NCBI GenBank assembly: GCA_041987425.1
Contig: JBHIWP010000002.1
Location: 18,608 to 82,607, forward strand
Direction: 5' to 3'
Length of the DNA stretch: 64,000 nucleotides
Source of the DNA: Candidatus Promineifilaceae bacterium
GTDB lineage: Bacteria > Chloroflexota > Anaerolineae > Promineifilales > Promineifilaceae
Shown here piece after piece: positions 5,336 through 59,946 of this stretch. Below the pieces are notes generated by a model, which saw only the letters and a program-made list of their open reading frames with translations, made no database searches and was not told the DNA's origin. Each line of letters opens with the position of its first letter. Position 1 is the first letter of the stretch. Made by a program: the position numbers and the translations under genes.

Positions 5336-5352
5336 TTGTGCCCCCTGATTGA

Positions 5353-7078: not shown

Positions 7079-7334
7079 TTAGATACTTGCCCCTTGCCTC
7101 TTGTTTGGCGATATGCGCCGCCCGGTTGGCATCGTAGTTATCTAGTACCTCGCGTGCGGCTGGTCCTATGTTGTGTTCTTTGTGCGGTGGCAATCCACCC
7201 CACACCACGCTAGGCACCTGTGGCACGCGGCTCATGGCCTCGCCACAGTCGCACACGATACCCGTAGAATAGAGCATCCTATGTAAAACCTCTTTGTAGT
7301 GAGATTCAGGGCACTTGTATACGTAAGTCGGCAT
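7071..7334 (-). CDS. FmdB-type zinc-ribbon protein
   Basis: The N-terminus MPTYVYKCPESH...CDCGE has the paired Cys pattern typical of the CxxC_CxxC_SSSS zinc-ribbon family. Confidence 0.55.
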   Translation of the reverse strand: MPTYVYKCPESHYKEVLHRMLYSTGIVCDCGEAMSRVPQVPSVVWGGLPPHKEHNIGPAAREVLDNYDANRAAHIAKQEARGKYLNE

Positions 7335-25454: not shown

Positions 25455-26225
25455 CTAAAACTCTCCTTGAACTTGCCTAACTTCGCGGGTCTTTAACGCA
25501 TGGTGTGTGCCGTTTGATTGACGGCCGTTTTGACTGAGTAAAGAATTGTCTTTAAGCGGGAAAATACCCGTCCACTGATTCATGATTGATTGCTTCACCA
25601 TTGCCGTTGCCATAGCGGGATTGTATTTAGCCAACTCCCTTAACTGCATATCAACAGCCCTTTGCGTCAGCTTTTTGCGCTGCTCTTGCCGCGCCGCAGG
25701 CCACTCTTGCGTAAATACCCGAACAAACTCAGGTGTGTTTAGTTTTTCTGGTATGTTGAATTCAATTTCTTTTTTCTGCCGTTTCTTTTGCGCGTGTGCT
25801 TTTGGTGGTTCTTTTATGGTTCTTGATGGTTCTTGATGGTTCTGGGTGACTGGTGTGTCACCTTTTTGCGCTGGTGTGTCACCTTTTATGACCGTAGTGT
25901 CACCTTTTTGCGCTGGTGTGTCACCTTTTTCTGTCTCATTAAAGGTGACTGGTGTGTCACCTTTTTGAACGCAATTAATCACGTATTCATTGGTATTTCC
26001 GCGCCCTGCGTTACGTTCTATTGTCAGCTCGCCATCTGCCTCGGCCTGAGCAATCAACCGCTTAACGCTGCGCGGCTTCACGTCGATACGGTTAGCCAAT
26101 GTTTCTATAGCAGGCCAGCAACGGCCGTCAGCATCGGCAAATTCAGCCAGGGCAAGCATAAGCAGTTTCCCGTAGCCTGTTTGCTTTGAATGTTCCCAAA
26201 CTGCTTTTGTCGCCTGCCAACTCAT
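25455..26225 (-). CDS. Replication initiator-like protein (N-terminal winged HTH, repeat linker)
   Basis: The N-terminus resembles phage replication/DnaD-type HTH proteins. The central KGDTP(A/V) 7-aa repeats are encoded by 21-bp iterons. Confidence 0.55.
   Translation of the reverse strand: MSWQATKAVWEHSKQTGYGKLLMLALAEFADADGRCWPAIETLANRIDVKPRSVKRLIAQAEADGELTIERNAGRGNTNEYVINCVQKGDTPVTFNETEKGDTPAQKGDTTVIKGDTPAQKGDTPVTQNHQEPSRTIKEPPKAHAQKKRQKKEIEFNIPEKLNTPEFVRVFTQEWPAARQEQRKKLTQRAVDMQLRELAKYNPAMATAMVKQSIMNQWTGIFPLKDNSLLSQNGRQSNGTHHALKTREVRQVQGEF
25738..25966. repeat. Candidate phage replication origin: iterons plus an adjacent A/T-rich tract inside the initiator gene
   Basis: GGTGTGTCACCTTTT-type 15-mers start at 25852, 25873, 25894 (variant), 25915 and 25951, spaced 21 bp. 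ATGGTTCTTG occurs three times (third copy ATGGTTCTGG) at 25817-25846. An A/T-rich tract spans 25738-25790. Confidence 0.5.
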
Positions 26226-40457: not shown

Positions 40458-40766
40458 TTGCCTATGAAAACAGCTCATCTCCCCCGTGTGGCAGGCCGGT
40501 CCAGCAGGCTCCACCTGCAGCAGCAGGGTGTCGCCGTCGCAGTCTACGTGGATGTCCTTGACGCGCTGCACGTTGCCGGAGGTACCGCCCTTGTGCCACA
40601 GCTTCTGGCGGCTGCGGCTCCAAAAGTGGGCCTCGCCCGTTTCCAGCGTCAGCCGTAATGCATCGGCGTTCATCCAGGCCACCATCAATATTTCGTGGGT
40701 GGTGTGATGTTGGAGAACGGCCGTAATCAGACCCTTCTCATCAAATTTTAGGCCGTTGAATAACAT
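40440..40766 (-). CDS. hisI: Phosphoribosyl-AMP cyclohydrolase
   Basis: [17 protein letters not shown] and DCDGDTLL motifs. Confidence 0.9.
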
Positions 40767-40804
40767 GCTTCACTTAGAAATTGTTTCTATTCCTTTAAAT
40801 TATT

Positions 40805-41173
40805 TTATATGTTTGGTTGCTGATACCTTTGAATTTCTAAAACATCCCCATTTCGATCTGTCCACTTTTTTGGTTGCAGAGTAATATTTTCAATCATTCC
40901 TGCTGCATACTGTGCCCAGTTGTAAAGTATGCCACCTTGCTTCTCAGCAAGCCAACCTTGTTGCCAAAATTCCTCGAAAAACTCTAAGAACTGTTGTGCA
41001 TCAATGAGATATTCATCTTCGCCGTTATCATCTTGTAGACCACTAGAACATTCAAGAAATTGAAGCTCGATTAGGTGGGTAATTTTGTAGAATAACTTTG
41101 CTCGCCCATTTGACATGCTGGCCGCGAAACGCTTATTTCCATCTTTTAACAAAGCTATAAATATTTTTCCCAT
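40805..41173 (-). CDS. Orphan protein inserted between hisF and hisI (A/T-rich)
   Basis: 122-aa ORF with no motif recognised. Its composition is clearly more A/T-rich than the flanking his genes. Confidence 0.5.
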   Translation of the reverse strand: MGKIFIALLKDGNKRFAASMSNGRAKLFYKITHLIELQFLECSSGLQDDNGEDEYLIDAQQFLEFFEEFWQQGWLAEKQGGILYNWAQYAAGMIENITLQPKKWTDRNGDVLEIQRYQQPNI

Positions 41174-41203
41174 GATTTAATATCGACTAGTTTCCATATT
41201 TAG

Positions 41204-42031
41204 CTATTGTCTAACTGGGATATTTTGCAGCGCCAGGTAATCCTTCACTTCGGCGATGGTGAGCTGTTTGTAGTGAAACAGCGAAGCGGCGAGAGCCGCA
41301 TCCGCGCCGCCTTCCGTCAATGCCTGGGCAAAGTGGTGCAGCGTGCCAGCACCGCCGGAGGCAATGACGGGGATGTTGACCGCGTCGGCAATGGCACGAG
41401 TGAGTTCGATGTCATAGCCTTCTTGCGTGCCGTCCCCGTCCATGCTGGTGAGCAAAATCTCGCCCGCGCCGCGCCGCTCGGCCTCCTTGGCCCATTCGAC
41501 AGCGTCCAGCCCGGTGGGGGTGCGGCCGCCGCTGACGTACACTTCCCAATGGTTAATGGTTAATGGTAAATTGTTAATGCTTAATTGCTGTTCATTCAAC
41601 TGATCACTGCTTACCGAAGCCCGCTCACCAACCCGTCGCGCGTCAATTGCCACCACCACCGCCTGGCTGCCAAAGGCTTCGGCGCCCTGGCTGATGATCT
41701 CCGGGTTGCGCACGGCCGCAGAGTTGATGCTGATCTTGTCTGCCCCGGCGCGCAAAATGCCGCGCATGTCTTCCACCGTGCGGATGCCGCCCCCGATGGT
41801 AAAGGGAATGAACACCTGCTCCGCCACGGCGCGCGCCAGCTCCATCACCGTGTTGCGCGCCTCATGGGTGGCCGTGATGTCTAGAAAAACCAGCTCATCG
41901 GCCCCGGCTTGATCATAAAGCCTGGCCTGCTCCACCGGATCGCCCGCGTCGCGCAGCTCAACAAAGTTGATGCCTTTGACCACACGGCCGTCTTTCACGT
42001 CTAAGCAGGGAATAATGCGTTTGGCTAACAT
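41204..42031 (-). CDS. hisF: Imidazole glycerol phosphate synthase, cyclase subunit
   Basis: [37 protein letters not shown]. Carries a 21-aa repeat-derived insert. Confidence 0.9.
41549..41611 (-). repeat. Nine tandem heptamers (63 nt) in frame inside hisF
   Basis: The coding strand reads CAGTGAT CAGTTGA ATGAACA GCAATTA AGCATTA ACAATTT ACCATTA ACCATTA ACCATTG, encoding [21 protein letters not shown]. Confidence 0.75.
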
Positions 42032-42044
42032 AAAAGCTCTCTTG

Positions 42045-42785
42045 TCAGTCGGCGCGCACGGTATTGAACGCTTCTTGCAGGTCTAAACGGCCGTCATAAA
42101 TGGCACGTCCGGTAATCACCCCAACCACACCATGTTCCGCCTGGGCGTGACAGCGGCGAATGTCTTCCATTGAGGCCACGCCCCCGGAAGCGATGACCTG
42201 CAAGCCCGTCACCTGGCTCAGCTGCACCGTCGCCTGCACATCTACACCGCTTAACACGCCATCACGACCAATGTCGGTGTAGATAATGGTTTTGACCCCG
42301 CGCTCTTTCATATCCTTGCCCAGATCAACGGGATTCATGGCCGTATCGCGCTGCCAGCCTCTCGTCTTAACACGGCCGTTGCGCGCATCTATACCCACCA
42401 ATATTTTACTCTTGCCAAACTTTTCCACGGCTTTGCTAACCAGGTCTGGCTTTTCGATGGCCACCGTGCCCAAAATGACCCGGTTAGCGCCAGCGTCCAG
42501 GGCTCGCGCCACATCATCCAGGCTGCGGACGCCGCCGCCAAACTGCACCTTCACGTCTAGCTGGGCGATGGCAGGCAACGCAGCCCAGTTAGCTGCACTG
42601 GCTTCGTCCAGAGCGCCGTCCAGGTTGACCACGTGCAGCCACCTGGCTCCGGCGTCAACCCATTTTTGGGCCATTTTGACGGGATTATTGCCAAACACGG
42701 TTTCTTTTTCAGGATCGCCATGCTCCAGCCGCACGACACGGCCGTTGCGTAAATCAATAGCGGGGAATATCGTGAACTTACTCAA
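42045..42785 (-). CDS. hisA: ProFAR isomerase
   Basis: [34 protein letters not shown]. Confidence 0.9.
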
Positions 42786-42803
42786 TGGTACCTCTTGGGA
42801 TGA

Positions 42804-42862
42804 GGTAATTGTGTAATTAAGCGATTGGGTAATTACCCAGTTACTCAGTTACCCAATTACAC
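42804..42862. repeat. Octamer-period repeat hairpin in the hisA-hisH spacer
   Basis: GTAATTGT GTAATTAA GCGATTGG GTAATTAC CCAGTTAC TCAGTTAC CCAATTAC, with a central palindrome GGGTAATTACCC. It overlaps the hisH stop. Confidence 0.6.
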
Positions 42863-43528
42863 TTTTTCTACAAAGTTTCTCAAAATCGTTAAACCTACAC
42901 TCTGGCTCTTTTCCGGGTGGAATTGCAGACCATAGATATTATCCTTAGCTACCACAGATGCAAAGGGAAAACCATAGTCAGTCCAGGCAAGAACGGCCGT
43001 TGCATCGTCCGCATCGCAGTAGTAAGAATGGACAAAGTAAGCGTAGTCGCCCGTTTTTACGCCATTCAGCAGCGGATTGTCCCAGGCGGGTTCCAACTGG
43101 TTCCAGCCCATGTGGGGAACTTTTAAATGGTTAATGGTTAATTGTGAATGGTGAATGGTTAACGGATTGGCTTCATTACCCATTAGCCCTTTCTCTGGAA
43201 ACCGCACCACCTTGCCCGCCAGTAAATCCAGGCCCTCGTGGACGCCCATTTCATGCCCTTCCGTGAACATGAGCTGCATTCCGACACAGATGCCCAAAAA
43301 AGGAACGCCGCGCTGCACGGCTTCGTGAATGGCTTCGGGCAGGTTGTGCCGTCGCAGGCCATCCATGCCAGAGCCAAAAGCGCCCACGCCGGGCAGCACC
43401 AGCTTGTCGGCACGGCGCACTACCTCCGCGTCGTCCGTCAGGTGCACCTCGGCCCCAATATACTCAAATGCCTTCTGCGCCGAGCGAATGTTGCTGGCGC
43501 CGTAGTCGATCATGGTGATTTTGGTCAT
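42857..43528 (-). CDS. hisH: Imidazole glycerol phosphate synthase, glutaminase subunit
   Basis: GVGAFG, ICVGMQL, PHMGWN, HSYY, FHPEKS. Carries a repeat-derived insert before PHMGWN. Confidence 0.9.
   Translation of the reverse strand: MTKITMIDYGASNIRSAQKAFEYIGAEVHLTDDAEVVRRADKLVLPGVGAFGSGMDGLRRHNLPEAIHEAVQRGVPFLGICVGMQLMFTEGHEMGVHEGLDLLAGKVVRFPEKGLMGNEANPLTIHHSQLTINHLKVPHMGWNQLEPAWDNPLLNGVKTGDYAYFVHSYYCDADDATAVLAWTDYGFPFASVVAKDNIYGLQFHPEKSQSVGLTILRNFVEKV
43121..43162 (-). repeat. Six tandem heptamers (42 nt, unit TTAACCA) in frame inside hisH
   Basis: The coding strand reads TTAACCA TTCACCA TTCACAA TTAACCA TTAACCA TTTAAAA, encoding LTIHHSQLTINHLK. Confidence 0.75.
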
Positions 43529-43533
43529 ATTTT

Positions 43534-43617
43534 GGTAATCCGTTAGCGGTTATCGGTATTCAGTGAATCAGTATTCAGTGAGTCAGTTACTGATTACCGA
43601 CCACTGACCACTGGTTA
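43534..43617. repeat. Twelve tandem heptamers forming an imperfect dyad. They fill the hisH-hisB spacer
   Basis: GGTAATC CGTTAGC GGTTATC GGTATTC AGTGAAT CAGTATT CAGTGAG TCAGTTA CTGATTA CCGACCA CTGACCA CTGGTTA. Confidence 0.65.
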
Positions 43618-44211
43618 CTCCGTCAGCGTTCCCTTCGTCGAAGCCACGTCCAGCCGTCGTGGGTCAATGGCTACGGCCGTTCTCAGCGCCCTGGCAAATG
43701 CCTTAAACAGGGCCTCGGCCTGATGGTGATCGTTACGGCCGTATTCAATGCGGGCGTGCAGGTTCATTCTGGCGTGAATGGCTACCGATTCAAAGAAGTG
43801 CTGCACTAGATCAGTGGGCATCTGGCCGATGGCTGGCGTGTGCCAGGTACCGTGGAAGACCGTGTACGGCCGTCCGCCCAAATCAATCGCCACAAAGCCC
43901 AGCGCCTCGTCCATCGGCACGTAGGCATGCCCCACGCGGGTGATGCCCTTGCGGTCGCCTAAAGCACTGTTGATGGCTTGCCCGAAAACAATGCCTACGT
44001 CCTCAATGGTGTGGTGCGTGTCGATGTGCAGGTCGCCCGTGGCCACCACCGTGAGATCAAACAGTCCGTGGATGGAAACGGCCGTAAGCATATGGTCAAA
44101 AAAGCCAACGGCCGTACTGATGTCGTGCTGCCCTCTGCCTTCCAAATTGATGGAGACAGAAATGTCTGTTTCGCTGGTTTGCCGATGAATGCTTGCTGTT
44201 CGTGTCATCAT
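43615..44211 (-). CDS. hisB: Imidazoleglycerol-phosphate dehydratase
   Basis: [26 protein letters not shown], and [11 protein letters not shown] are typical IGPD motifs. Confidence 0.9.
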
Positions 44212-44234
44212 GAATCGTTTTGTTGAAGTTTATA

Positions 44235-44325
44235 CAAAGGAACGAAGATAGAAAGGAACCAAGAGGATTAGCAACTAATTGATTATCTTACTTCTTTGTT
44301 TCTTCCGTCCCTTTGTCTCTTCGTC
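44235..44325. repeat. Purine-rich octamer-period hairpin in the hisB-hisC spacer
   Basis: The left arm AAAGGAAC GAAGATAG AAAGGAAC CAAGAGGA faces a pyrimidine-rich right arm, CTTCTTTGTTTCTTCCGTCCCTTTGTCTCTTCGT. Confidence 0.55.
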
Positions 44326-44332
44326 TAATTAA

Positions 44333-45481
44333 TTACTGCTCTTCTAAACGACGCAGTTCGGCAAGCAACTGGTCTGTCTCCTCTGGCCGTCCGGCGCTGA
44401 TGCGGATGCAGTTGTCTACGCCGGGCTTATTAAAGTAACGCACCAGAATGCCTTCTTTTTCCAGATCAAGTTTGAGTGCCTGCGCACTGCGGCCAATGAC
44501 CCGGCATAATATAAAGTTTGAACGGCTGGGGAGTGGGTTCAGGTAGCTAATTGTACCCAATTTTGTAAAAAGGCGCTCTCTTTCTGCAACCAAAAGCTGC
44601 ACTTTCTCATGCAGCCACGCCTGATCGGCCAGTGAGGCCAGCGCCGCCAGCGAAGCGGCGACGTTAATGTTGTACGGCTGCTTGATTTTCCACAGGTGCG
44701 GCAGCAGCCATTCCGGGAACGCGCCGTACCCCACGCGCAGCCCGGCCAGCCCGGCCAGCTTGCTAAACGTCCGCAGCACCGCCAAATTGTCATATTCCAA
44801 GGTCCAGTGAATGCGGCTGGCTGAATTAAAACTGACCGTGGAGTTTTCCTCTTCTTTTTCTCTGCGTTCTCCGCGGTTCAAATCAAAATCGACGTACGCT
44901 TCGTCAAGAACAACGAGGACGGGTAGTTGGAGCAAACGTCGTAGGTCGGCGTCATTGATGGTGCTGCCGTCCGGATTGTTGGGCGAGCAGATGAAGAGGA
45001 CTTTGGCGGTGGGGTGCTTGGCTACGGCCGTTTCAATGGCGTCAACGTCCAGGCTGAAATCTTCTTTGCGCCACACCTGCACGTAACGGCCGCCGTTAAC
45101 GGCCGTGCTGAACGGATACATGCCAAACGACGGTGGGCAATCTATCACCACGTCGTCTGGCGAGAGCACCACGCGCAGCACCAGGTCGATCAGCTCATCG
45201 GCGCCCATGCCCGCCAGCAGCCGCGCCTTGGGCATCTGCACATAGCTGCTGAGCGCATCGCGCAGTTCGTTGGATTCGGGGTCGGGGTAGATGTGGAAGA
45301 AACGGCCGTTGCGTAAAGCCTCCAAAGCCTTCGGCGACGGCCCATAAGGATTCTCGTTGGCGTCCAACTTCACAATTTCCTCCGGCGCCCGCCCCAGCCG
45401 TGCCGACAGCACCTCAAACGGCACAATTGGAATGTAAGGCTCCATCTCAGCAATATCAGGTCGTACAAATCTGTTGGTCAT
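44333..45481 (-). CDS. hisC: Histidinol-phosphate aminotransferase
   Basis: KLDANENPYGPSP, DEAYVDF, and LRTFSKLAGLAGLRVGY (PLP lysine). Carries a repeat-derived insert between DEAY and RTFSK. Confidence 0.9.
   Translation of the reverse strand: MTNRFVRPDIAEMEPYIPIVPFEVLSARLGRAPEEIVKLDANENPYGPSPKALEALRNGRFFHIYPDPESNELRDALSSYVQMPKARLLAGMGADELIDLVLRVVLSPDDVVIDCPPSFGMYPFSTAVNGGRYVQVWRKEDFSLDVDAIETAVAKHPTAKVLFICSPNNPDGSTINDADLRRLLQLPVLVVLDEAYVDFDLNRGERREKEEENSTVSFNSASRIHWTLEYDNLAVLRTFSKLAGLAGLRVGYGAFPEWLLPHLWKIKQPYNINVAASLAALASLADQAWLHEKVQLLVAERERLFTKLGTISYLNPLPSRSNFILCRVIGRSAQALKLDLEKEGILVRYFNKPGVDNCIRISAGRPEETDQLLAELRRLEEQ
44843..44878 (-). repeat. 36-nt repeat-derived segment in frame inside hisC
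   Basis: The coding strand AACCGCGGAGAACGCAGAGAAAAAGAAGAGGAAAAC encodes NRGERREKEEEN. Its first 20 nt match the inverted repeats flanking the GxxExxY gene. Confidence 0.65.
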
Positions 45482-45501
45482 AGTTAGTTGCTTCCTTATT
45501 A

Positions 45502-45532
45502 TTAACCGCGGAGAGCGCGGAGAACGCTGAGA
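45502..45532. repeat. Left inverted repeat flanking the GxxExxY gene
   Basis: TTAACCGCGGAGAGCGCGGAGAACGCTGAGA, with a 9-nt periodic unit GGAGAGCGC. Confidence 0.65.
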
Positions 45533-45540
45533 TTTGGCTG

Positions 45541-45936
45541 TTAGAGGTTGAGAGCCACACGCTTGATGCCACCAACTTTTAGTCGGCGCACGTTGAAATT
45601 TAGTAGCAACCCTAGCTTTAGATTTGCCAGCTTTAAGTAGGACATTAATTGTGCCTGGTGTATGGCTTCAAATTTTTTGATAGCTTTTAGCTCCACAACA
45701 ACAAGATTTTCTACTACAAAGTCCGCTCTATAAGCATTCTCCACAGGAAGTTGTTTGTAGATTAACGGGATGGTTCTTTCGCGCTCATATTCAATGTTTC
45801 GCAATGCCATCTCATGAGCCAAACAGGCCTGATAAGCTGACTCTAGCAAGCCAGGACCGAGATGTTTATGTACTTCAATGGCCGCCCCGATAATCTTTCC
45901 CGTAATCTTGTCTTCTTCTCGCATTGGCTCTCTCAT
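45541..45936 (-). CDS. GxxExxY family protein (PD-(D/E)XK-like, PDDEXK_3)
   Basis: KIIGAAIEVHKHLGPGLLESAYQACLAHEM contains the GxxExxY signature. The start was set at the first ATG (45936), because the ORF-track start is a TTG. Confidence 0.75.
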   Translation of the reverse strand: MREPMREEDKITGKIIGAAIEVHKHLGPGLLESAYQACLAHEMALRNIEYERERTIPLIYKQLPVENAYRADFVVENLVVVELKAIKKFEAIHQAQLMSYLKLANLKLGLLLNFNVRRLKVGGIKRVALNL

Positions 45937-45942
45937 ATTCAA

Positions 45943-45977
45943 TCCTCCGCGCTATCTCTGCGCTCTCTGCGGTTAAA
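45943..45977. repeat. Right inverted repeat flanking the GxxExxY gene
   Basis: Its reverse complement TTAACCGCAGAGAGCGCAGAGATAGCGCGGAGGA matches the left repeat at 20 of the first 22 positions. The hisD stop lies in its outer TTAA. Confidence 0.65.
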
Positions 45978-47295
45978 TCCTCTTCCTTGCAGCGTTGGCA
46001 TGGGCGTCGAGGGCTTCCGCCTGGGCGATGCGGGCGGCGGCGGCGCTGAGTTGGGCAGACGTGGCGTCGTCTAGCTGCACGATGCTGCTGATTTTGACGA
46101 AATCAAGCACGTTGAGCGGTGAGGCAAAGCGGGCGGTGCCGTTGGTGGGCATCACGTGGCTGGGACCGGCCACATAGTCCCCCAACACTTCAAAGCTGCG
46201 CTCGCCAATGAACAGGCCGCCTGCGTTAGGGATTTTATCTGCATAGGCCGCCGGGTTTTGCGTGGCGATGCAGGTGTGTTCGGCGGCAAAGTCGCTGGCA
46301 AGCTGGCAGGCTTCGTCCAAATCGGAGGTTAGCACAATGCCGCCCCGATTAGCCAGCGACACGGCGATCACCTCACTGCGGGTTAGCGATTCCATCTGGC
46401 GGGCAATCTCTACCTGCACGGCCTCGGCCAGCGAATTGGAGGGCGTAAAGAGGATGGCGGTCGCCAGAACGTCGTGTTCGGCCTGTGCCAGCATGTCGGC
46501 GGCAACCCAGGCGGCATCGGCCGTTTCGTCGGCAACGACCGCGGTTTCGGTTGGGCCATACAGGCCGTCGATACCCACAATGCCGTAGACCTGCCGCTTG
46601 GCCAGGGTGGTAAAGAGGTTGCCTGGACCCACAATTTTGTCCACGCGGGGCACGCTTTCCGTGCCAAAGGCCAGCGCGGCGATGGCCTGAGCTCCGCCCA
46701 GCGTATAAATTGTGTCGATGCCAGCAATGGCCGCTGCGGCCAGGATCACGTCCGGGATACGGCCATCTTCCCGTCCTGGCGGGGTTGCCACCACAATCTC
46801 CGGCACACCTGCCACCCGCGCCGGAATTACCGACATGAGCAGCGAAGACGGCAGCGGGGCCGTGCCGCCGGGCACGTAGACACCCACGCGCTGAATCGGC
46901 GTGACGCGCTGGCCGAGAAAGCCGCCCATTTCAGTGGTTTGCCAGTTGGGCAGCGGCTGCCGCTGATGGAAGTCGGCAATGCGATACGCGGCCAGTTCTA
47001 GGGCGTGTTTTAGCGCTGGTTCAATACGCGTGAGAGCCGCAGAAATCTCATCCTTATCCACTCGCAAACTTGCCACTTTCACACCATCTAGCGTTTCCGT
47101 CCAGCGGCGCAGGGCGGCATCGCCTCTCTGGCGCACGTCACGCAAAATGGTGGAGACGGCCGTTTCTGGCGTAGCGCCCTCACCAAACAGTTGGTTTAAG
47201 CTGGCCTGTAATGCCGGGGGCACGTCAGGCTCCAGGGACGTTTCTCGCCGCAGGATGGATTTTTGAGCATCGGGGATTGTGTATATTCTTATCAT
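45973..47295 (-). CDS. hisD: Histidinol dehydrogenase
   Basis: Typical HisD throughout (GGAQAIAALAFGTE, AQAEHD, GDYVAGPSHVMPT). The start was moved to the ATG at 47295 (MIRIYT), because the longer ORF-track N-terminus is encoded by a repeat hairpin. Confidence 0.9.
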   Translation of the reverse strand: MIRIYTIPDAQKSILRRETSLEPDVPPALQASLNQLFGEGATPETAVSTILRDVRQRGDAALRRWTETLDGVKVASLRVDKDEISAALTRIEPALKHALELAAYRIADFHQRQPLPNWQTTEMGGFLGQRVTPIQRVGVYVPGGTAPLPSSLLMSVIPARVAGVPEIVVATPPGREDGRIPDVILAAAAIAGIDTIYTLGGAQAIAALAFGTESVPRVDKIVGPGNLFTTLAKRQVYGIVGIDGLYGPTETAVVADETADAAWVAADMLAQAEHDVLATAILFTPSNSLAEAVQVEIARQMESLTRSEVIAVSLANRGGIVLTSDLDEACQLASDFAAEHTCIATQNPAAYADKIPNAGGLFIGERSFEVLGDYVAGPSHVMPTNGTARFASPLNVLDFVKISSIVQLDDATSAQLSAAAARIAQAEALDAHANAARKRI

Positions 47296-47306
47296 GGTCT
47301 TTTGGG

Positions 47307-47377
47307 AGGAAGTGAAGAGTGAGAAGTGAAAAGTAAAAAGAACCCACTTATCACTTTTCACTTTTTACTTATCACTC
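47307..47377. repeat. Heptamer-repeat hairpin (unit AAGTGA[A/G]) filling the hisG-hisD spacer
   Basis: GAAGTGA AGAGTGA GAAGTGA AAAGTAA AAAG aaccca CTTATCA CTTTTCA CTTTTTA CTTATCA CTC. The arms pair over about 30 bp by hand and overlap the hisG stop. Confidence 0.65.
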
Positions 47378-48390
47378 TGTAAAGCTGTTAGCATGGCGCG
47401 GTACCGCTCCGGTTCTTCTTCAAAAATGTAGGTGCAGGGTGAGACGACCACACCGCTGCCGCCAATGGCTCGTAGTTCAGCAATGGCCTGGAACAAATTT
47501 GCTTTTTGCACAACAATATTAACGGCGAACCAGTTGGGGTCGCCAGGCGTGTGGTGCCGGGCGACGACCGGGGCAATGGTGGGGCCGCGCAGGCCGCGCA
47601 GGTGAGGCTGGCTCAGCATCTTTTTGGCAATATCTTCGGGAGAATCCCCGCGTACGTTTGTGACAACCAGGAAGGAACTTTCGGCGCGCAGGTAGGCTTC
47701 GATGTATTCAATGAGCTGGCGGGCCACGGTGAGCACGTCCGGACGCGTTTTCAGCGTTTCTTTGTTGGCGATCAGGCAGGCTTGCGAGCGCAAGATGAGA
47801 CCATCTTCAATCGGGCGCAAGTGATTGTCGCGCAGGGTGATGCCGGAGGAGACCAAATCGGAGATGACGTCGGCATAGCCGATTGTGGGGGCAATTTCCA
47901 GCGTGCCCTCTACGCTAATTAGCTTGACGGGGGCCACACCGTGCTGTTCCAGGAAAGCACCGGTGACTTTGGGGAACTTAGTCGCCACGCGTAGGGCACG
48001 GCCGTTTTCTCCCAGTGCCTCAGCCCAGGCCGCCAGATCGCCCATCGTGCGGGCTGGCTGATCTTCCGGGATAGCCAGGTTGAGGGTGCAGGGGCCAAAG
48101 CCAAGCGCGTCGTGGAGGGTGAGGATGGATTGCGAACGGCCGTAAGCCTTTTCAGCCAGGATATCCAGGCCCGTAATACCAAAATCAATGCTTCCTTGCC
48201 GTACCCCGGTAACAATATCGCCTGGCCGCTGAAACATCACCGTAAGCTGAGGCAGGCTAGGAATGATGGCTTCATACTGGCGGGGATTGGGTCTAAAAAT
48301 CTTTAATCCACACGCTTCTAAAAAATCAAACGCGTCTTTGTGCAAGGCCCCCTTACTAGGCAGGGCCAGCCGGATATCTGATCGTAGCAT
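47365..48390 (-). CDS. hisG: ATP phosphoribosyltransferase (long form with C-terminal regulatory domain)
   Basis: LRLALPSKG, DIVTGVRQGSIDFGITG, DLVSSGITLRDN. The start was moved to the ATG at 48390, preceded by GAAGGAG. The ORF-track extension is repeat-encoded. Confidence 0.9.
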   Translation of the reverse strand: MLRSDIRLALPSKGALHKDAFDFLEACGLKIFRPNPRQYEAIIPSLPQLTVMFQRPGDIVTGVRQGSIDFGITGLDILAEKAYGRSQSILTLHDALGFGPCTLNLAIPEDQPARTMGDLAAWAEALGENGRALRVATKFPKVTGAFLEQHGVAPVKLISVEGTLEIAPTIGYADVISDLVSSGITLRDNHLRPIEDGLILRSQACLIANKETLKTRPDVLTVARQLIEYIEAYLRAESSFLVVTNVRGDSPEDIAKKMLSQPHLRGLRGPTIAPVVARHHTPGDPNWFAVNIVVQKANLFQAIAELRAIGGSGVVVSPCTYIFEEEPERYRAMLTALQSDK

Positions 48391-48410
48391 ACAATACTCC
48401 TTCAAGATAG

Positions 48411-48455
48411 TTGAACGCAGAGGCGCAGAGAACGTAAACCGCAAAATCTCTGCCT
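48411..48455. repeat. GCGCAGAGA-type repeat element in the hisG 5' UTR
   Basis: GAACGCAGAGGCGCAGAGAACGTAAACCGCAAAATCTCTGCC uses the same unit type as the GxxExxY flanks and the hisC insert. Confidence 0.5.
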
Positions 48456-48500
48456 TAAGTTTATCTTATACGGGAAGGGTTTCACCCGTTATTACAGAAT

Positions 48501-48537
48501 ACAAACAAAAACACCCTCCTCTGGCTTGAGGAGGGTG
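48501..48537 (-). terminator. Intrinsic terminator of the his leader (attenuator)
   Basis: The minus strand reads CACCCTCCTC aagcca GAGGAGGGTG followed by TTTTTGTTTGT. It lies 34 nt after the leader-peptide stop and about 110 nt before the hisG ATG. Confidence 0.7.
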
Positions 48538-48570
48538 CTAAAATGCATCCCAGTTAGAATTAAAGCTGCC

Positions 48571-48651
48571 TCAACCCAAAGTAAACCATCGCCAACTTGC
48601 ATGGTGTGCGTGATGATGCTTCAGATGGGTTGCAGCAGGAATGTTTTTCAT
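48571..48651 (-). CDS. His-rich leader peptide of the his operon (26 aa)
   Basis: Hand translation gives MKNIPAATHLKHHHAHHASWRWFTLG, with six His including HHHAHH. It is followed by the terminator and is absent from the ORF track. Confidence 0.6.
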   Translation of the reverse strand: MKNIPAATHLKHHHAHHASWRWFTLG

Positions 48652-48670
48652 GACGCTAAAAGTCTAGCAC

Positions 48671-48699
48671 ATACTACGTGGTGTGCAATCTATTTCCAA
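48671..48699 (-). promoter_or_regulatory. Candidate his operon promoter TTGGAA-17-TAGTAT
   Basis: Minus-strand reading: -35 at 48699-48694 and -10 at 48676-48671, about 20 nt upstream of the leader ATG. Confidence 0.3.
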
Positions 48700-48808
48700 T
48701 ATCCCTTCTGTAAAGAGCCTTTTAACAGTTTGTTATCAATTCGATTTATGCCCTGATTGATGTGTATAATGTGCGAAAAATTCTTGCTAAATTTAGGTAG
48801 GTTGCACC

Positions 48809-50536
48809 GTGTCTATTCCTGGAACAGTTGTTTACAATTCGGCAGTAGAAGATTTTAAGCGGGCCCGTCGCGCCGCGGCCATGCAGCAAATGATGGCCCG
48901 GCTCACCGGCAAGTCGGCCGATCTTTTGGCCTATGAGGATGTTTGCCGCTATGTGAAATCTGCTGACGAGGTGAAGCAGGGCGTGCGGGAGATCCCACTG
49001 GACGCCATTGTGGGCAGCGTAGGCCGGTACAAGGATTTTACGCGTACTTTCTGGCCCAAGAACGATAGTGATGAGGAGCGTTGGGTGCGGGTGAAAACGG
49101 CCGTTCACGATATGTCTGGTATGTCGCCCATTGATGTGTATAAAACCGGCGACGTTTACTTTGTTATTGACGGCAACCACCGGGTCTCTATTGCCCGGCA
49201 GCTGGGCAGCGACACGATTACCGCCCGCGTCACGGAAGTGCCGCTGCGCGTGCCCCTGTCGCCCGATGATGATCCTGAAAAAATTATTTGTAAAGCGCGG
49301 TATGCTGAGTTTTTGGAGCAAACGGATCTGGACAATTTACGACCTGGAGCAAATCTGCTGATGACTTTTTGTGGCCAGTACCAGCTGCTGCTGGACCAGA
49401 TTGCGGCGCATGCTGCGCTTTTGGCGGAGAAGGGTGAAGCGGTTGATGATAAAACGGCCGTTTGCCGCTGGTATGATGAGGTGTATCTGCCTGTCTTGCG
49501 CCACATTCAGGCGCAGGGCATCATGCGCCTCTTTCCAGACAGGACCCAGGCCGATATGTACATCCTTTTTTCTGAACGGCGGGCGGAGCTGGAAGAGGCT
49601 TTGGGTTGGAAGATTGATGCGGAGACGGCCGTATCTCAATTAGCCAGCGAAGAAAGCGACCGACCAAAAGGGCTGGCGGGCTGGCTGCGCCAGACGCTGG
49701 TACCCGCAGAGCTGATTGAAGGGCCGCCCCCAGGGCGCTGGCGGGAATTTCAGGAAACGCGAGAGCGAGGTTGCCTGTTTGCCGATTATTTGGTGGCTAT
49801 AGAGGGCAGCGAAACAGATTGGCAAATGCTGGACCAGGTGGTAAAGATGGCGCTGCGCGACAATGACCGTCTGCTGGGCCTGCACGTGGTGGCGCGTCAG
49901 GCGCAGCGAAACAGCGCGAAAGTAGAGCGGATCCGAGAAAGATTTCTGCGCACCTGCCGTGAGGCTGGCCTTAGATGCGAGTTTGCCGTTGAAGTGGGCG
50001 CTGTTGTGGATGTTATTATTAAACGGGCCATCTTTGCTGATTTGGTCGTGCTCAATTTAGAGCATCCCCCGGGGCCACAGGCTCTCGCCAGGTTGGGCAA
50101 CCGCTTTAGCCAGCTGGTGCAGCGCTGCCCACGACCCATTTTAGCCATTCCTTGTGGGGCAGAGACGGCTATGGACCGGGTGCTATTGGCTTACGACGGC
50201 AGCCCCAAGGCAGATGAAGCGCTGTTTGTGGCTACCTACCTGGTAACGCGCTGGCCGCTGTCCTTGACGGTGGTTACGGTGGAGACGGAGCATACGGCGG
50301 CCAATGCCCTACAGCGCGCCAAAGAATATTTGGAGGCGCACGGCGTTACGAAAGCGCGGTACGTGTTGGGCAAGATGCCCATTGCAGAAGCGGTTTTACA
50401 AACGGCCGTTGACGAAGATATTAATTTTCTCATCATGGGTGGCTTTGGTTTTAGGCCCATGATGCACTTTGTGCTCGGCAGCACTGTGGATGAGATTTTG
50501 CGGCGGTTTAAGCATCCAATTTTAATTTGTCGATGA
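48809..50536 (+). CDS. ParB/Srx-like N-domain protein with a DUF4032-like middle region and tandem C-terminal universal stress protein domains
   Basis: YFVIDGNHRVSIARQLG (ParB/sulfiredoxin-type), then WYDEVYLPV...RTQADMYIL. Two USP-like halves follow, ending GGFGF...VLGSTVDEILR. GTG start. Confidence 0.6.
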   Translation: MSIPGTVVYNSAVEDFKRARRAAAMQQMMARLTGKSADLLAYEDVCRYVKSADEVKQGVREIPLDAIVGSVGRYKDFTRTFWPKNDSDEERWVRVKTAVHDMSGMSPIDVYKTGDVYFVIDGNHRVSIARQLGSDTITARVTEVPLRVPLSPDDDPEKIICKARYAEFLEQTDLDNLRPGANLLMTFCGQYQLLLDQIAAHAALLAEKGEAVDDKTAVCRWYDEVYLPVLRHIQAQGIMRLFPDRTQADMYILFSERRAELEEALGWKIDAETAVSQLASEESDRPKGLAGWLRQTLVPAELIEGPPPGRWREFQETRERGCLFADYLVAIEGSETDWQMLDQVVKMALRDNDRLLGLHVVARQAQRNSAKVERIRERFLRTCREAGLRCEFAVEVGAVVDVIIKRAIFADLVVLNLEHPPGPQALARLGNRFSQLVQRCPRPILAIPCGAETAMDRVLLAYDGSPKADEALFVATYLVTRWPLSLTVVTVETEHTAANALQRAKEYLEAHGVTKARYVLGKMPIAEAVLQTAVDEDINFLIMGGFGFRPMMHFVLGSTVDEILRRFKHPILICR

Positions 50537-50542
50537 GGATTT

Positions 50543-52282
50543 ATGAGTGCACACAATCAATATCACTACCATGCAGCCCTGGAGGACTTTCACCAGGCGC
50601 GGCGACAGGCGGCAATGCAGCAGCTGCTGGCCCGATTTACCGGCGAGCAAACTGAACTACTATCGTATGAGGATGTGAGGCGAAAGCTGAAGGTCACCAA
50701 CGTACGCGAGCGTGGACTGCAAGAAATCCCTGTAAATAAGATTATTGGCAGCGTAGGGCGCTACAAAGATTTTACCCGGAGCTTTTTGCCCAAGAGCGAC
50801 AGCGACAGCCATCGCTGGGCCCGGGTTAAAGCGGCCGTTTCAGACCTGGCTGGCGTACCGCCAATTGAGGTTTATCAGCTGGGCGATGCTTATTTTGTCA
50901 TAGACGGCAACCATCGCGTCTCCATTGCCAGGCAGCTGGAGACTCCCACCATCTCCGCGTATGTGACTGAGGTGAAGACCCGCGTTCCCCTGACGGCAGA
51001 CGATGATCCCGAAGAGCTGATTTGCAAAAGCCGCTATGCGGAATTCCTGGAAAATACCGATCTGGATAATCTGCGGCCTGAAGCTGATTTAATGATGACC
51101 TTCTGTGCCCATTACTCTGTTTTGCTAGACCATATTGAGGTACATCGCTATTACATGGGGCTGGATCTGAAGCGGGATGTCTCTTACGAAGAAGCTGTGG
51201 CCCACTGGTATGACGAGGTGTACATGCCCGTGGTGGAACTGGTGCGCGAGCAGGGGATTATGCGAGACTTCCCCGAGCGCACCGAAGCGGATATGTATAT
51301 TTTGCTGGCAGAACATCGCGCTGAGTTGGAAAGTGCTCTGGGCTGGGATGTGGATGCCAGTACGGCCGTTAGCGAGATGCAGCGCAAGAGCAGACCGGGG
51401 CCTGCGCTGGCGCGCGTGTTGGAAGCCGTGCTGCCCGATGAGCTGGAGTTTGGCCCGGCTGCTGGGCAGTGGCGGCAAGAGCGGCTAAGCCAGCGTAATC
51501 TGAGCCGCCTTTTTGAAGAAACAATGGTGGCTATCTCGGGTCAGCCAGATGACTGGCGCGTGTTGGACCAGGCGATAGTGATGGCACAGCGGGAAACCGG
51601 CCGTTTACGTGGCGTTCATGTATCTGATGCCAGCGATGAGGAAGCCGCTGAAGAGAGTGTGTCATCCATACGGGGAGAATTTTACCGCAGAACGGAGTCC
51701 GCCGGAGTCCAGGCAAATTTTACCGTTGAGTTTGGCAACGTAGCCCGCCACATTGTGGCCCATGCCGCCTACTCCGACCTGGTAATGCTGGCTTTGAATC
51801 GCCCCCCTGGCCTCTCGATTTTGGAGCGCCTGGCCTCTGGCCTGCAAACCATACTTAAGCGAACGCCGCGACCGGTGATGGTTGTGCCTACGGCCGCATC
51901 CCCCATGCAGCACGCCTTACTGGCTTATGACGGCAGCCCCAAGGCAGAAGAAGCGCTGTTTGTGGCTACTTATCTGGCCAGCCGGTGGCAGATACAGCTT
52001 ACAGTTGCAACGATTAGCAGCAGCGCCAACGGTAAGCTGGATGCTTCCAGGCGCATTCAGGCAAGGGCCAAAACATACCTTGAACTGGCCGGAGTTTCTG
52101 CCAACTACTTGCTTTCTGTGGGGCCACCCGCGCAATCCTTGCTGGAAACGGCCGTTTCGCAAAATGTGGATTTTATGATCATGGGCGGGTTCGGCTTTAG
52201 TTCTATGAAGAGCCTGGTGTTGGGCAGCACGCTCAACCGCGTTTTGCTGGAGTACAAGCAGCCTGTATTGATATGCAGATAA
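50543..52282 (+). CDS. Paralogue of the preceding gene (ParB/Srx-like + DUF4032-like + 2x USP)
   Basis: Collinear similarity to 48809..50536 along the whole length (YFVIDGNHRVSIARQL, WYDEVYMPV, GGFGF...VLGSTLNRVL). Confidence 0.6.
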   Translation: MSAHNQYHYHAALEDFHQARRQAAMQQLLARFTGEQTELLSYEDVRRKLKVTNVRERGLQEIPVNKIIGSVGRYKDFTRSFLPKSDSDSHRWARVKAAVSDLAGVPPIEVYQLGDAYFVIDGNHRVSIARQLETPTISAYVTEVKTRVPLTADDDPEELICKSRYAEFLENTDLDNLRPEADLMMTFCAHYSVLLDHIEVHRYYMGLDLKRDVSYEEAVAHWYDEVYMPVVELVREQGIMRDFPERTEADMYILLAEHRAELESALGWDVDASTAVSEMQRKSRPGPALARVLEAVLPDELEFGPAAGQWRQERLSQRNLSRLFEETMVAISGQPDDWRVLDQAIVMAQRETGRLRGVHVSDASDEEAAEESVSSIRGEFYRRTESAGVQANFTVEFGNVARHIVAHAAYSDLVMLALNRPPGLSILERLASGLQTILKRTPRPVMVVPTAASPMQHALLAYDGSPKAEEALFVATYLASRWQIQLTVATISSSANGKLDASRRIQARAKTYLELAGVSANYLLSVGPPAQSLLETAVSQNVDFMIMGGFGFSSMKSLVLGSTLNRVLLEYKQPVLICR

Positions 52283-56037: not shown

Positions 56038-56084
56038 TGATGCGTGAAGCGCAAGAGATGAGGTCTGTTACGCTTCACGCATCA
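56038..56084 (-). repeat. 14-bp perfect hairpin built of GTGAAGC-type heptamers, after the multihaem cytochrome gene
   Basis: TGATGCGTGAAGCG at 56038-56051 and CGCTTCACGCATCA at 56071-56084. Preceded by GTGAAAC GTGATGC GTGAAGC phasing. No U-tract. Confidence 0.55.
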
Positions 56085-58061: not shown

Positions 58062-59849
58062 ATGTCTATAACGAATCATAAACATGGACTAAAGTTGCTA
58101 ATTTTGTTTTTGCTGGTTGGCGTGTGGGCGTGGCCGGAAACGGCCGTTTCCTCTGTAACTGCTCAGTCGGCCCGCGACCCCCGCTTTGGCGCGGTAGAGT
58201 CGTTTTGGGCACCGGGCGAAGCGGCCGAACTGGGCGTCGGCTGGGAGCGTATCCTCTTTTACTGGAACGAAATCCAGCCTACCGGCCCCAACGACTGGAA
58301 CACCCTGCATGTCCACGAAGAGTGGCTGGCAGAAGCGCGGGCGCAGGGGCGGCAGGTGACGGGATTGCTCAAAAATACGCCCACCTGGGCCACGGACGGC
58401 ACGCCAGCCTCCGGGGTGCCGCGCGGCCTCTATTTGCCAATTGATGATCCCGGCAATCTGTGGGCCAACTACGCCCGGCGCGTGGCCTCCTACTACAGCG
58501 CGCACGGCGTGCACAACTGGATTATCTGGAACGAACCAGACATTGCCCCAGACGTCTATGGGCATGAGTTCAGCGGCTCGATGGCCGATTACTATCAGCT
58601 GGTGAAGGTGGCTTACCTGGCTATTAAGCAGGTGGACCCCAACGCCAAGATTCACCTGGGCGGCATGACCTACTGGCACGACCCAAGCTGGCTGGGCCGC
58701 TTCCTAAGAATGGTTGCGGAAGATCCTGATGCGGCGGCCAACAACTACTATTTCGACATCATCTCGCTGCACATCTACTTTCGCCCGGAGACGGTTCCCC
58801 AAATTGTGGGCAACGCCTTTGCTGCGCAGCAGCAGGCTGGTATTCCGCTGAAGCCGGTGTGGATTAATGAGACGAATGCCCGACCCAGCACAGACCCGGA
58901 GTGGCCGGTGCAGGTGCAGGCGTTTGAGCTGGATTTGGAGCAGCAGGCGTGGTACATCGTGCAGGCGTACGCCCTTGGTTTTTACTCGGGCGCGGGGCGA
59001 ATTTCGGTGTACAAGTTGATTGATATCAATATTTCGCCCGGCGAAGAGTCGTGGGGGTTGATACGGCCGTATGACTTCAGCAAGCGCCCTGCCTTTTTTG
59101 CCTATCAGAACACAATCAAATACCTGGCCGGGTTTACCTACCCGGTGCAGCGAGAGCAGGCGGGTAACTACACCATTGTGCGCTTTAACCGGCCAGAGGG
59201 CACCACGCGCGTGCTCTGGGCGCGCACGGCCAGCAGCGCGACGCTCAACGTGCCGGCTTTGGCGGACGCGGCCGTTTTGGTTGACCCGATCACCGGGGCC
59301 GAAACGCCCATAACTCCAACCGGGGGCAGCTACGAGATTCGTTTGAATGGCGCGCGCTGCGCTGGAGAGTGCTACATGGGTGGCGCGCCGGTCTTCCTGG
59401 TAGAAGCCGGGGTTGGCGGTGAAGGTGGCTCTACCGCGCCGCCGGTAGTGTCGGCGGCAAGCACGCCAGCGGCTGGGGCAACCGGTACCGATGGGTCCCA
59501 AACGGCGGCCGGGACGCCTATTCCCACCGAGCCGTCTGCCCCAACCGAAACGCCGTATCCGACGGCCACAAACATGGTGCCCGTGCCTAAACCTTCCAGC
59601 ACGCCGACCGCAACGAATACGGCCGTACCACCCACAGAAACAGCACCCGCCACGCAAGAGGCGGCCATAGTGCCTACGGCTACGGAAGCGGTTGTTTCGG
59701 CTGCTGGAGATGATGGCGCAATTGTAGAAGCTGGGGAAGAAGAAACGGCCGTAATCGAGGCTCCAGCACCTAACCTTGGCATTTGGCTGCTGGGGGGCGC
59801 AGGTCTTGCTGCGCTGCTGGCTGGTTTCGTTTGGCTCCGCCGCCGCTAG
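58062..59849 (+). CDS. Secreted glycoside-hydrolase-like TIM-barrel protein (clan GH-A-like) with a Pro/Thr/Ala linker and a C-terminal TM anchor ending RRR
   Basis: Signal peptide. IIWNEPD and WINETN motifs resemble the acid/base and nucleophile strands. C-terminus LGIWLLGGAGLAALLAGFVWLRRR. Confidence 0.5.
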   Translation: MSITNHKHGLKLLILFLLVGVWAWPETAVSSVTAQSARDPRFGAVESFWAPGEAAELGVGWERILFYWNEIQPTGPNDWNTLHVHEEWLAEARAQGRQVTGLLKNTPTWATDGTPASGVPRGLYLPIDDPGNLWANYARRVASYYSAHGVHNWIIWNEPDIAPDVYGHEFSGSMADYYQLVKVAYLAIKQVDPNAKIHLGGMTYWHDPSWLGRFLRMVAEDPDAAANNYYFDIISLHIYFRPETVPQIVGNAFAAQQQAGIPLKPVWINETNARPSTDPEWPVQVQAFELDLEQQAWYIVQAYALGFYSGAGRISVYKLIDINISPGEESWGLIRPYDFSKRPAFFAYQNTIKYLAGFTYPVQREQAGNYTIVRFNRPEGTTRVLWARTASSATLNVPALADAAVLVDPITGAETPITPTGGSYEIRLNGARCAGECYMGGAPVFLVEAGVGGEGGSTAPPVVSAASTPAAGATGTDGSQTAAGTPIPTEPSAPTETPYPTATNMVPVPKPSSTPTATNTAVPPTETAPATQEAAIVPTATEAVVSAAGDDGAIVEAGEEETAVIEAPAPNLGIWLLGGAGLAALLAGFVWLRRR

Positions 59850-59871
59850 GTTTCGTTTAAAAGTAATGGAC

Positions 59872-59946
59872 GCAGATTCTCCTGATTGACCTGATTTTGA
59901 TCGCTTTTCAATCAGATCTATCAGGAGAATCTGCGTTTTATTTTTT
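59872..59946. terminator. Bidirectional intrinsic terminator between convergent genes
   Basis: 15-bp perfect arms GCAGATTCTCCTGAT at 59872-59886 and ATCAGGAGAATCTGC at 59920-59934. GTTTTATTTTTT follows on the plus strand. An inner CTGATT/AATCAG pairing is also present. Confidence 0.65.

Follow-up and report, generated by a model that had tools for sequence, protein, structure and literature searches.

The 64-kb stretch of Candidatus Promineifilaceae DNA analysed here (the window; contig JBHIWP010000002.1, positions 18,608 to 82,607) carries a histidine biosynthesis (his) operon on the minus strand at 41204-48390. The gene order is hisG-hisD-(GxxExxY cassette)-hisC-hisB-hisH-hisA-hisF. Within hisC, which encodes histidinol-phosphate aminotransferase, lies the in-frame remnant of a palindromic repeat, and the same repeat bounds the cassette, which carries a small gene of the GxxExxY family.

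The host gene is a hisC by profile, by motifs and by its placement in the his operon. Its product scores 302.7 bits against the NCBIfam equivalog TIGR01141, above the curated cutoff of 276.55, and matches PF00155 with E 1.1e-57. D193-E194-A195-Y196 and K241, the pyridoxal 5'-phosphate (PLP) lysine of the RTFSK motif, are invariant in the HisC alignment. The nearest solved relative is PDB 8bj4/8bj1 (8bj4, E 3.7e-113), and the best-matching proteins are labelled Chloroflexota (Ardenticatenaceae, Anaerolineae, 'Candidatus Leptofilum'). The sequence of the locus was found exactly in contigs of four seawater/marine metagenome runs; none of the RNA runs of the same marine metagenome study contained it. 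The relatives compared are hisC neighbourhoods from 80 species-level genomes and four more contigs, given below by L numbers. Features of the window are collected in Table 1.

A palindromic repeat remnant within hisC

On the minus strand, 44878-44843 reads AACCGCGGAGAACGCAGAGAAAAAGAAGAGGAAAAC, translated NRGERREKEEEN, inside the hisC open reading frame (ORF). The pattern AACCGCRGAGARCGCRGAGA occurs exactly at 44859-44878 (minus), 45504-45523 (plus) and 45955-45974 (minus), with one further overlapping match at three mismatches. These four matches in the 64-kb window compare with 0.02 expected, and none of 100 shuffles reached four. The 5' arm in hisC is the cassette inverted repeat at 45504-45532 less one 9-nt unit, with one mismatch. 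In the relative L001, the arms of the hisC element agree with that genome's own cassette repeats at 29 of 30 and 30 of 31 nt. The original prediction, which saw in hisC a copy, in frame, of the repeat on either side of the cassette, is thus supported. It had placed the copy at 44843-44878; the identity of the repeat stands, but these coordinates hold only the 5' arm and the loop, and the whole remnant spans 44881-44826 (minus strand). Nor is the insert a solo repeat, as had been supposed. It is half of an old palindromic element, of which a complete hairpin is found at the same site in relatives.

That hairpin is near-perfect in L001, where the site reads TTGAACCGCAAAGAGCGCGAAGAACGCAAAG-(loop)-CTTTGCGCTCTCTGCGTCCTTTGCGGTTCAA, and equivalents are present in L003, L008, L021, L202, L203 and L204. 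Folded as DNA and compared with shuffles, the site gives z values of -6.46 (L001), -4.75 (L003), -8.11 (L204) and -6.50 (L005). The window copy (44820-44895, minus strand) gives -4.9 kcal/mol and z +0.79, with no hairpin. Only its 5' arm is still repeat-like because its 3' arm has decayed; set against the intact arm of L003 and read by eye, the latter looks to have lost one 9-nt unit and to have acquired one G-to-A change and a 3-nt insertion. The purine-rich loop of the window lies where the intact hairpins of L001, L003, L202, L203 and L204 have their A/G-rich loops. L005 and L002 carry a variant in which CGC has become CAC in one arm and GCG has become GTG in the other, a compensatory change that keeps the stem. 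A G-U pairing logic at the RNA level was also considered for the arm mismatches; by inspection, the direction of the G/A and C/T differences is not consistently wobble-compatible on the sense strand, and nothing is concluded from it.

In all relatives the length of the insert is a multiple of three and the ORF is uninterrupted. The translated arms appear as a protein signature, NR(K/G)ER(E/G)ER... and ...SA(S/P)(S/F)AV. The spacing from DEAYVDF to RTFSK is 37 residues in the window against 19-23 in about 60 other Chloroflexota/Poribacteria hisC loci (31-35 aa when counted from LDEAY through RTFSK), in agreement with the earlier count of 37 against a usual 21 or so. The insert adds about 15-19 residues relative to uninserted homologues, not exactly 16 as first stated.

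Alignment to the solved HisC 8bj4 leaves a gap of 18 residues that coincides exactly with the insert and is framed by the invariant motifs DEAY and RTFSK. In the AlphaFold2 (AF2) model of the window protein, residues 197-220 have a predicted local distance difference test score (pLDDT) below 50 and lie between a strand (189-193) and a helix (223-228). The orthologue alignment and structural mapping that had been suggested as checks thus fit an insert in a tolerated surface loop, which is disordered in the predicted model.

The insert is older than this genome. Of 120 HisC cluster representatives, more than 70 carry a version of the 9-mer type, a few have another hairpin and the rest have none. 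These three states are interleaved on a HisC tree built with the insert masked, and L202 and L007, whose HisC proteins are 89% identical, differ at the site by a clean 69-nt (23-codon) indel. Together these observations imply that the hisC site has gained or lost the element several times. Conservation of the extra residues in relatives lacking the repeat family, which the original prediction had named as grounds for giving up the link, was not seen. Every relative with the insert has the repeat family too, the DNA of its insert being the hairpin itself, and close relatives free of the insert exist (L007).

The hisC of L017 is a separate case. There, hisD and hisC appear to lie in one continuous stop-free frame (4525-7200), and at the loop in question the protein has an insert of another kind, longer (about 40 aa) and with a strong fold (-79 kcal/mol as RNA).

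Table 1 Features of the his operon region in the window (element and cassette parts, host gene and related repeats)
Feature	Position	Strand	Description
hisC, histidinol-phosphate aminotransferase, 382 aa	44333-45481	-	host gene; intact, frame open through the insert
5' arm of the hisC-borne palindromic element	44859-44881	-	TTGAACCGCGGAGAACGCAGAGA; two 9-nt units; translated L-N-R-G-E-R-R-E; exact pattern match
Purine-rich loop of the hisC element	44843-44858	-	AAAAGAAGAGGAAAAC, translated K-E-E-E-N
Decayed 3' arm of the hisC element	44826-44842	-	TCCACGGTCAGTTTTAA; compare the intact L003 arm TCCGCGTTCTCCGCGGTTAAA
GxxExxY / PDDEXK_3 small nuclease-fold gene	45541-45942	-	cassette cargo; same orientation as the his operon
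3' (hisC-proximal) terminal inverted repeat of the cassette	45502-45535	-	three 9-nt units; read on the his-sense strand, it finishes with GCGGTTAA
5' (hisD-proximal) terminal inverted repeat of the cassette	45942-45977	-	TTAACCGCAGAGAGCGCAGAGATAGCGCGGAGGATT
Degenerate pyrimidine-arm copy in the hisG leader	48411-48432	-	TTCTCTGCGCCTCTGCGTTCAA; 8-nt unit; lies about 20 nt before the start codon (ATG, 48390) of hisG
Inverted/tandem short-unit repeats in his spacers	42805-42860, 43552-43587, 44212-44332, 47310-47376		GTAATTAC-, TCAGTGAA-, AAGGAAC- and AAGTGAA-type

The GxxExxY cassette and the dispersed repeat family

The cargo of the window cassette matches PF13366 (E 3.5e-42) and TIGR04256 (149 bits, cutoff 35), a family with at least 7981 matches at E <= 1e-10. 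Its start is probably the ATG at 45936, because the database copy P0121 has 131 aa, two fewer than the ORF. The translation contains the motifs GLLESAY and ADF...VELK (D...E-x-K), and G29, E32, Y35, D72 and K84 are invariant or nearly so in the family alignment. The AF2 model (pLDDT 84.9) has its best Foldseek matches in Cas4 SSO0001, lambda exonuclease and Bax1, all weak (best E 2.9e-3, TM-score 0.45-0.56). The predicted structure confirms a place in the PD-(D/E)XK superfamily, and the fold matches give no clue to the substrate. A Foldseek search with the model returned no Holliday-junction-resolvase-like match, the protein had no sequence match in the PDB, and PADLOC gave a marginal Cas4 match only, with no defence-system assignment.

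The terminal repeats are built of short tandem units; Tandem Repeats Finder reports a period of 9 and 2.9 copies at 45507-45532. The hisD stop codon TAA (45973-45975) lies inside the tip of the 5' repeat, as it does (tip TTAACCGC) in most Ardenticatenaceae copies. Except in L005, the GxxExxY gene between hisD and hisC has on either side an inverted repeat made up of roughly three tandem 8-9-nt units, an arrangement seen at this site in 14 genomes, and the unit varies by lineage (CGCGGAGA, CGCAAAGA, or AGCAGATT in Thermoflexus).

The window has a GxxExxY gene between hisD and hisC, and so do L001, L003, L005, L007, L008, L012, L021, L043, L053 and L201-L205. It is absent from this site in L002, L004, L006, L013, L016, L018, L020, L022-L026 and others. 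The two subtypes of GxxExxY protein largely go with the subtype of the repeat (L203 and L204 are exceptions) and conflict with the HisC tree. Thus window and L001 are 87% identical in HisC and 58% in GxxExxY, and L001 and L008 are 79% identical in HisC and 80% in GxxExxY.

The cassette is a discrete unit found in several operons. With ends of the TTAACCGCAGAGAACGC... type it lies inside a carotenoid (crt) operon in L206, between a phytoene-desaturase-like gene and lycopene cyclase (2420-2993), and inside an rnf operon in L208, between rnfG and rnfE (2404-2972). Every copy examined is co-oriented with its host operon. Two nested repeat pairs in L208 suggest that the cassette there may sit inside the loop of a hairpin-only element. 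The junction of hisD and hisC in L002, which has no cassette, reads TTAACCGCGGTTAA (5965-5985), two repeat tips fused, and is possibly an excision or deletion footprint.

Other small ORFs occupy the same spacer elsewhere. L009 (4826-6000), L011 (5327-6000) and L021 (5244-6000) have antisense small ORFs between hisD and hisC that look by eye like YoeB/YefM-type toxin-antitoxin pairs, with a possible acetyltransferase also in L009. They are bracketed by short-unit inverted repeats (GGAGATT-type and CGCGGATT-type).

The repeat belongs to a multi-copy family that is dispersed and found in non-coding DNA as well. When metagenome contigs were scanned for the exact pattern, the 20-mer family was present at no fewer than 120 loci, both as hairpins alone and around cargo, and the contig and record names suggest diverse environments. 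Among the matches listed, about 39-43 are hairpin-only and about 20 enclose cargo, namely GxxExxY genes and other small ORFs. One further copy was found on a different contig of the four marine metagenome samples. Six hairpin-only copies lying in long ORFs were rejected as in-frame insertions; the ORFs are spurious high-GC ones, or the hairpin lies upstream of the real start.

Relatives of this arrangement are found elsewhere in the his operon. The window hisH (43119-43162) and hisF (41541-41598), both on the minus strand, contain in-frame runs of the heptamer CCATTAA/TTAATGG ('LTINH'). At these loop sites L001 and L006 have full CCATTAA-family hairpins, and insert-free relatives exist. Other hairpin families are also seen there, GGGGGAGGG in the hisH of L003 and L005 and a GGAGATT hairpin (-49.6 kcal/mol) in the hisF of L005. 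At least three his genes (hisC, hisH and hisF) therefore have in-frame palindromic inserts. In Thermoflexus, L043 has a 62-nt hairpin of its own AGCAGATT family after hisB, which L053 lacks (HisC 92% identical).

In the window, tandem repeats of short units cluster in the his operon, where they occur in most of the spacers between genes, and their type differs from spacer to spacer. A further copy upstream of hisG, as originally predicted, is present, but it is the degenerate opposite (pyrimidine) arm with an 8-nt unit and is missed by strict pattern searches. The hairpin at 47310-47376 in the hisG-hisD spacer draws microRNA and CRISPR direct-repeat matches in Rfam that are due to chance. An Rfam scan of 40500-49000 at E <= 1 gave no match to the repeat. 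The whole window has seven strong perfect hairpins, with none in shuffles; the inserts in the his genes are not among the seven because they have decayed. This stretch of the genome is not saturated with intact elements.

Some other repeats of the window stand apart from the his operon. The 8-nt palindrome ACGGCCGT occurs 92 times in 64 kb (positions 1777, 2534, ... 63311) against 0.98 expected, with none of 100 shuffles reaching 92. It lies mostly inside genes and resembles HIP1, the highly iterated palindrome of cyanobacteria, here in a member of the Chloroflexota. Tandem arrays at 25802-25986, four copies of the 10-nt TTGATGGTTC and 3.9 copies of the 21-nt CTGGTGTGTCACCTTTTTGCG, may be protein-binding sites. 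Two strong hairpins are isolated, one at 59870-59936 (27-nt arms, 93% complementarity, 13-nt loop), within or just upstream of the 5' end of the ORF 58707-59996 (minus), and one at 56038-56084 (19-bp stem, 5-nt loop). The plus-strand ORFs 48809-50536 and 50537-52279 share DNA segments that are 72-86% identical (50184-50484 and 51918-52230) and look like a tandem gene duplication.

Origin of the hisC insert

We consider it likely that the hisC segment is an eroded, cargo-less derivative of the repeat family of the GxxExxY cassette. [quoted passage not shown] An intact element measures about 57-78 bp and has an A/G-rich loop flanked by two arms, each built of tandem 9-nt units (CGC-R-R-AGA-R). 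It would have entered hisC, or been repeatedly re-created there, at the codons of the loop that joins the DEAY strand to the helix preceding the PLP-lysine strand. Read-through would rest on the near-absence of stop codons from the purine-rich arm and its pyrimidine-rich complement, on the 9-nt period, which keeps the frame, and on the site, where the charged, disordered peptide (NR-G/K-ER...SASSAV) falls in a loop that is predicted to be disordered and is absent from the solved homologue. The 3' arm would have decayed later in this genome. The segment would have arrived as an inserted mobile element and not through local copying, and the sharing of ends between the hisC repeat and the cassette suggests that the cassettes are mobile.

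The readiness of the family to be translated is supported by its open frames. Elements have 3.8 of six frames open against 1.9 of six in composition-matched shuffles, because purine-rich arms and their complements rarely spell stop codons. This lends support to the earlier suggestion that the repeat survives in coding DNA by virtue of its codon-compatible 9-nt unit. The repeat subtype (GGAGA or AAAGA) of the hisC hairpin is that of the resident cassette in six to seven of eight genomes, which points, suggestively, to re-insertion from the resident family or to intragenomic homogenisation.

Several observations weigh against a mobile-element origin or limit its force. The subtype match fails in L202 and is mixed in L203, and it is only suggestive because the genomes are phylogenetically non-independent. 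An unrelated hairpin ('GINHLGIN') at the same hisC site in L006 fits a structural hot spot equally well as repeated transposition. Filled and empty sites (L202/L007 and L043/L053) show no consistent target-site duplication. There is a possible ATAT duplication at the nested L208 cassette, and the TTAA at the tips is itself palindromic and hence uninformative on this point. The lack of an evident duplication argues against a classical DDE transposon, and no transposase is linked to the elements. Neither excision nor insertion variants or joints were seen in the four metagenome runs, in contigs only, which drop rare variants. Among the roughly 39 hairpin-only metagenome copies in the matches listed there is no convincing in-frame insertion in a real gene, so coding insertions may be a feature of this clade alone. 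Confidence in the HisC model is only moderate (mean pLDDT 73.8), and we infer, rather than observe, that the enzyme tolerates the insert without cost.

The strongest competing explanation does away with trans-acting mobilisation altogether. The hisC hairpin would be made, or kept similar, by ectopic gene conversion or template-switching with the cassette repeats about 0.6-1.1 kb upstream, and quasipalindrome correction would keep its arms complementary. The hisC arms are indeed closest to the adjacent cassette repeats of the same genome in L001, L003 and L204, and nearly so in the window, L008 and L021. The CAC/GTG changes of L005 and L002 are what template-switch correction would give, a target-site duplication is not seen, and arm-sized in-frame deletions occur (a 39-nt arm gone from the hisH of L203, a 9-nt unit from the window). 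Local copying is nevertheless hard to reconcile with L202, where an AAAGA-type hisC hairpin stands beside a GGAGA-type cassette, or with L002 and L005, whose hisC hairpin has no cassette with matching repeats. Hairpins of unrelated families lie in the hisH and hisF loops with no adjacent cassette. The family also occurs unlinked, in other operons and in at least 120 metagenome contigs, so dispersal happens somehow. We regard local copying as an unlikely origin for the insert.

It is quite improbable that the element is kept for a selected function, whether as an RNA stem-loop acting in the processing, stability or translation of the polycistronic his mRNA, in the manner of repetitive extragenic palindromic (REP) sequences or RNase III sites, or as a charged surface loop. 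Such a role would account for the high conservation of the hisC arm DNA across lineages whose HisC proteins are only 78-93% identical (L001, L203, L008, L202), for the compensatory changes that keep the stem and for the concentration of short-unit repeats in the his operon and most of its spacers. The hairpin has been lost in the window (z +0.79) and many close relatives are insert-free, so it is dispensable. The peptide also varies in length, frame (RGER... or RDAEDAE...) and family, and the element matches no Rfam family. De novo growth of the loop by slippage of 9-nt units within hisC, its likeness to the cassette being coincidence or convergence, agrees with the tandem 9-nt build of the arms and with the occurrence of unit-sized indels, but is effectively refuted by the two-arm palindrome of relatives, whose opposite arm is the reverse complement, and is contradicted by the 20-nt exact identity with neighbouring repeats (0.02 expected), by the clean 69-nt whole-element indel between L202 and L007 and by the arm-for-arm identity with the L001 cassette repeats.

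With its intact D...ExK motif and PD-(D/E)XK fold, and by analogy with the REP-associated tyrosine transposase (RAYT) and the REP doublets it mobilises (REPINs), GxxExxY is the evident candidate if a structure-specific nuclease acts on these repeats. We suggest, speculatively, that it might mobilise both cassettes and cargo-less hairpins, as RAYT does REPINs. The occurrence of other cargo genes bounded by the same repeats speaks against this.

Relation to known elements and implications

Palindromic repeats lying in frame in essential genes are known from textbooks as an oddity of Rickettsia. There, RPEs occur in frame in housekeeping genes, at positions compatible with the fold (PMC10969869). 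The elements described here share with RPEs that they are short in-frame palindromes in unrelated housekeeping genes, that they add peptide segments, and that they are multi-copy, also intergenic and variable between related genomes. The hisC element likewise belongs to a dispersed family and lies in frame in a functional gene, with predicted translation and a predicted loop position. The differences are that consensus sequences compared by inspection show no relationship, that the host belongs to the Chloroflexota (Ardenticatenaceae / Ca. Leptofilum), that the elements measure about 57-78 bp with arms of tandem 7-9-nt units against about 100-150 bp for RPEs, that several unrelated unit families occupy the same loop sites, and that small cargo genes (GxxExxY and others) are bounded by these repeats too. 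We know of no RPE counterpart to such repeat-bounded cargo genes. With no relationship to RPE-1 to RPE-10 in sequence or host, the element is an analogue of RPEs and not a member.

GxxExxY genes are probably multi-copy per genome, whereas RAYT genes are usually single-copy. In the REPIN/RAYT system, REP doublets forming hairpins are mobilised by a transposase whose gene is flanked by REPs (PMC3116915). The resemblance lies in a gene flanked by inverted short repeats that are also found as cargo-less hairpin doublets and are polymorphic between relatives. The flanked gene is, however, a PD-(D/E)XK-fold GxxExxY (PF13366/TIGR04256) and not an IS200/IS605-type Y1 transposase, so the defining feature of the system is missing. 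Moreover, REPs are extragenic by definition and the present repeats also occur inside genes, and other cargo genes can have the same flanking repeats.

A parallel for the cassette is the intervening sequence (IVS) of 23S rRNA, a small ORF bounded by inverted repeats, with a four-helix-bundle '23S rRNA IVS protein' family and a GxxExxY family. Intervening sequences of bacterial 23S rRNA were reportedly treated by Ralph and McClelland in 1993. GxxExxY proteins are known mainly as occupants of these sequences, of which excision by RNase III is the hallmark. The cassettes share with them a small ORF of the same family, inverted repeats able to form a long stem, sense orientation within a transcription unit and the lack of a promoter of their own. 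They differ in location, as their hosts are his, crt and rnf mRNA operons, together with coding sequence for the hairpins, and not a 23S rRNA helix.

Bacterial MITEs include Correia, ERIC and Nezha (review PMC10969869). Like these, the hairpins are small, have terminal inverted repeats and no internal transposase, occur in many copies and are occasionally fused in frame to host ORFs. Unlike them, they show no consistent target-site duplication, their ends are internally tandem-repetitive, and the partner with the same ends is a GxxExxY cassette encoding a PD-(D/E)XK-fold nuclease that is not known to transpose. The cassettes also recall those of integrons, with their attC sites, in being promoterless small cargo with imperfect palindromes, co-oriented with an upstream promoter, and in the diversity of cargo, putative toxin-antitoxin pairs included. 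They have inverted repeats on both sides of the gene instead of one attC, and they are single and scattered in housekeeping operons, with no array beside an integrase (the latter looked for in ORF lists only).

A wider picture may be drawn from these comparisons, which we put forward only as a tentative possibility. Together with their unit-repeat ends, GxxExxY genes would form a class of small mobile cassettes that is very widespread, so far undescribed and related to those 23S rRNA IVSs that carry an ORF. They would be promoterless and co-oriented within operons, and their own nuclease would recognise the hairpin or cruciform and spread both cassettes and hairpins. In Ardenticatenaceae, the hairpins would repeatedly land in the loop-coding parts of hisC, hisH and hisF and be translated there. 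The literature on GxxExxY that was searched, with incomplete coverage, contains nothing on repeats or mobility and describes neither GxxExxY cassettes bounded by unit-repeat inverted repeats nor hairpins derived from them; the repeat sequence itself turns up there in primers only.

The repeats have practical consequences: gene callers and programs that look for CRISPRs or repeats can be misled by them, and the inserts make proteins look more divergent than they are. The cargo-less hairpins are tied to the cassettes of one of the largest uncharacterised families of small nuclease-fold proteins, and hairpins and cassettes together provide a concrete hypothesis for the role of GxxExxY and for the movement of IVS-like cassettes, a link that is plausible. 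If the proposed origin of the hisC insert is correct, in-frame palindromic repeats would have arisen in free-living Chloroflexota as an independent case, involving at least three his genes and several repeat families, and would represent a general route by which selfish DNA lengthens protein loops.

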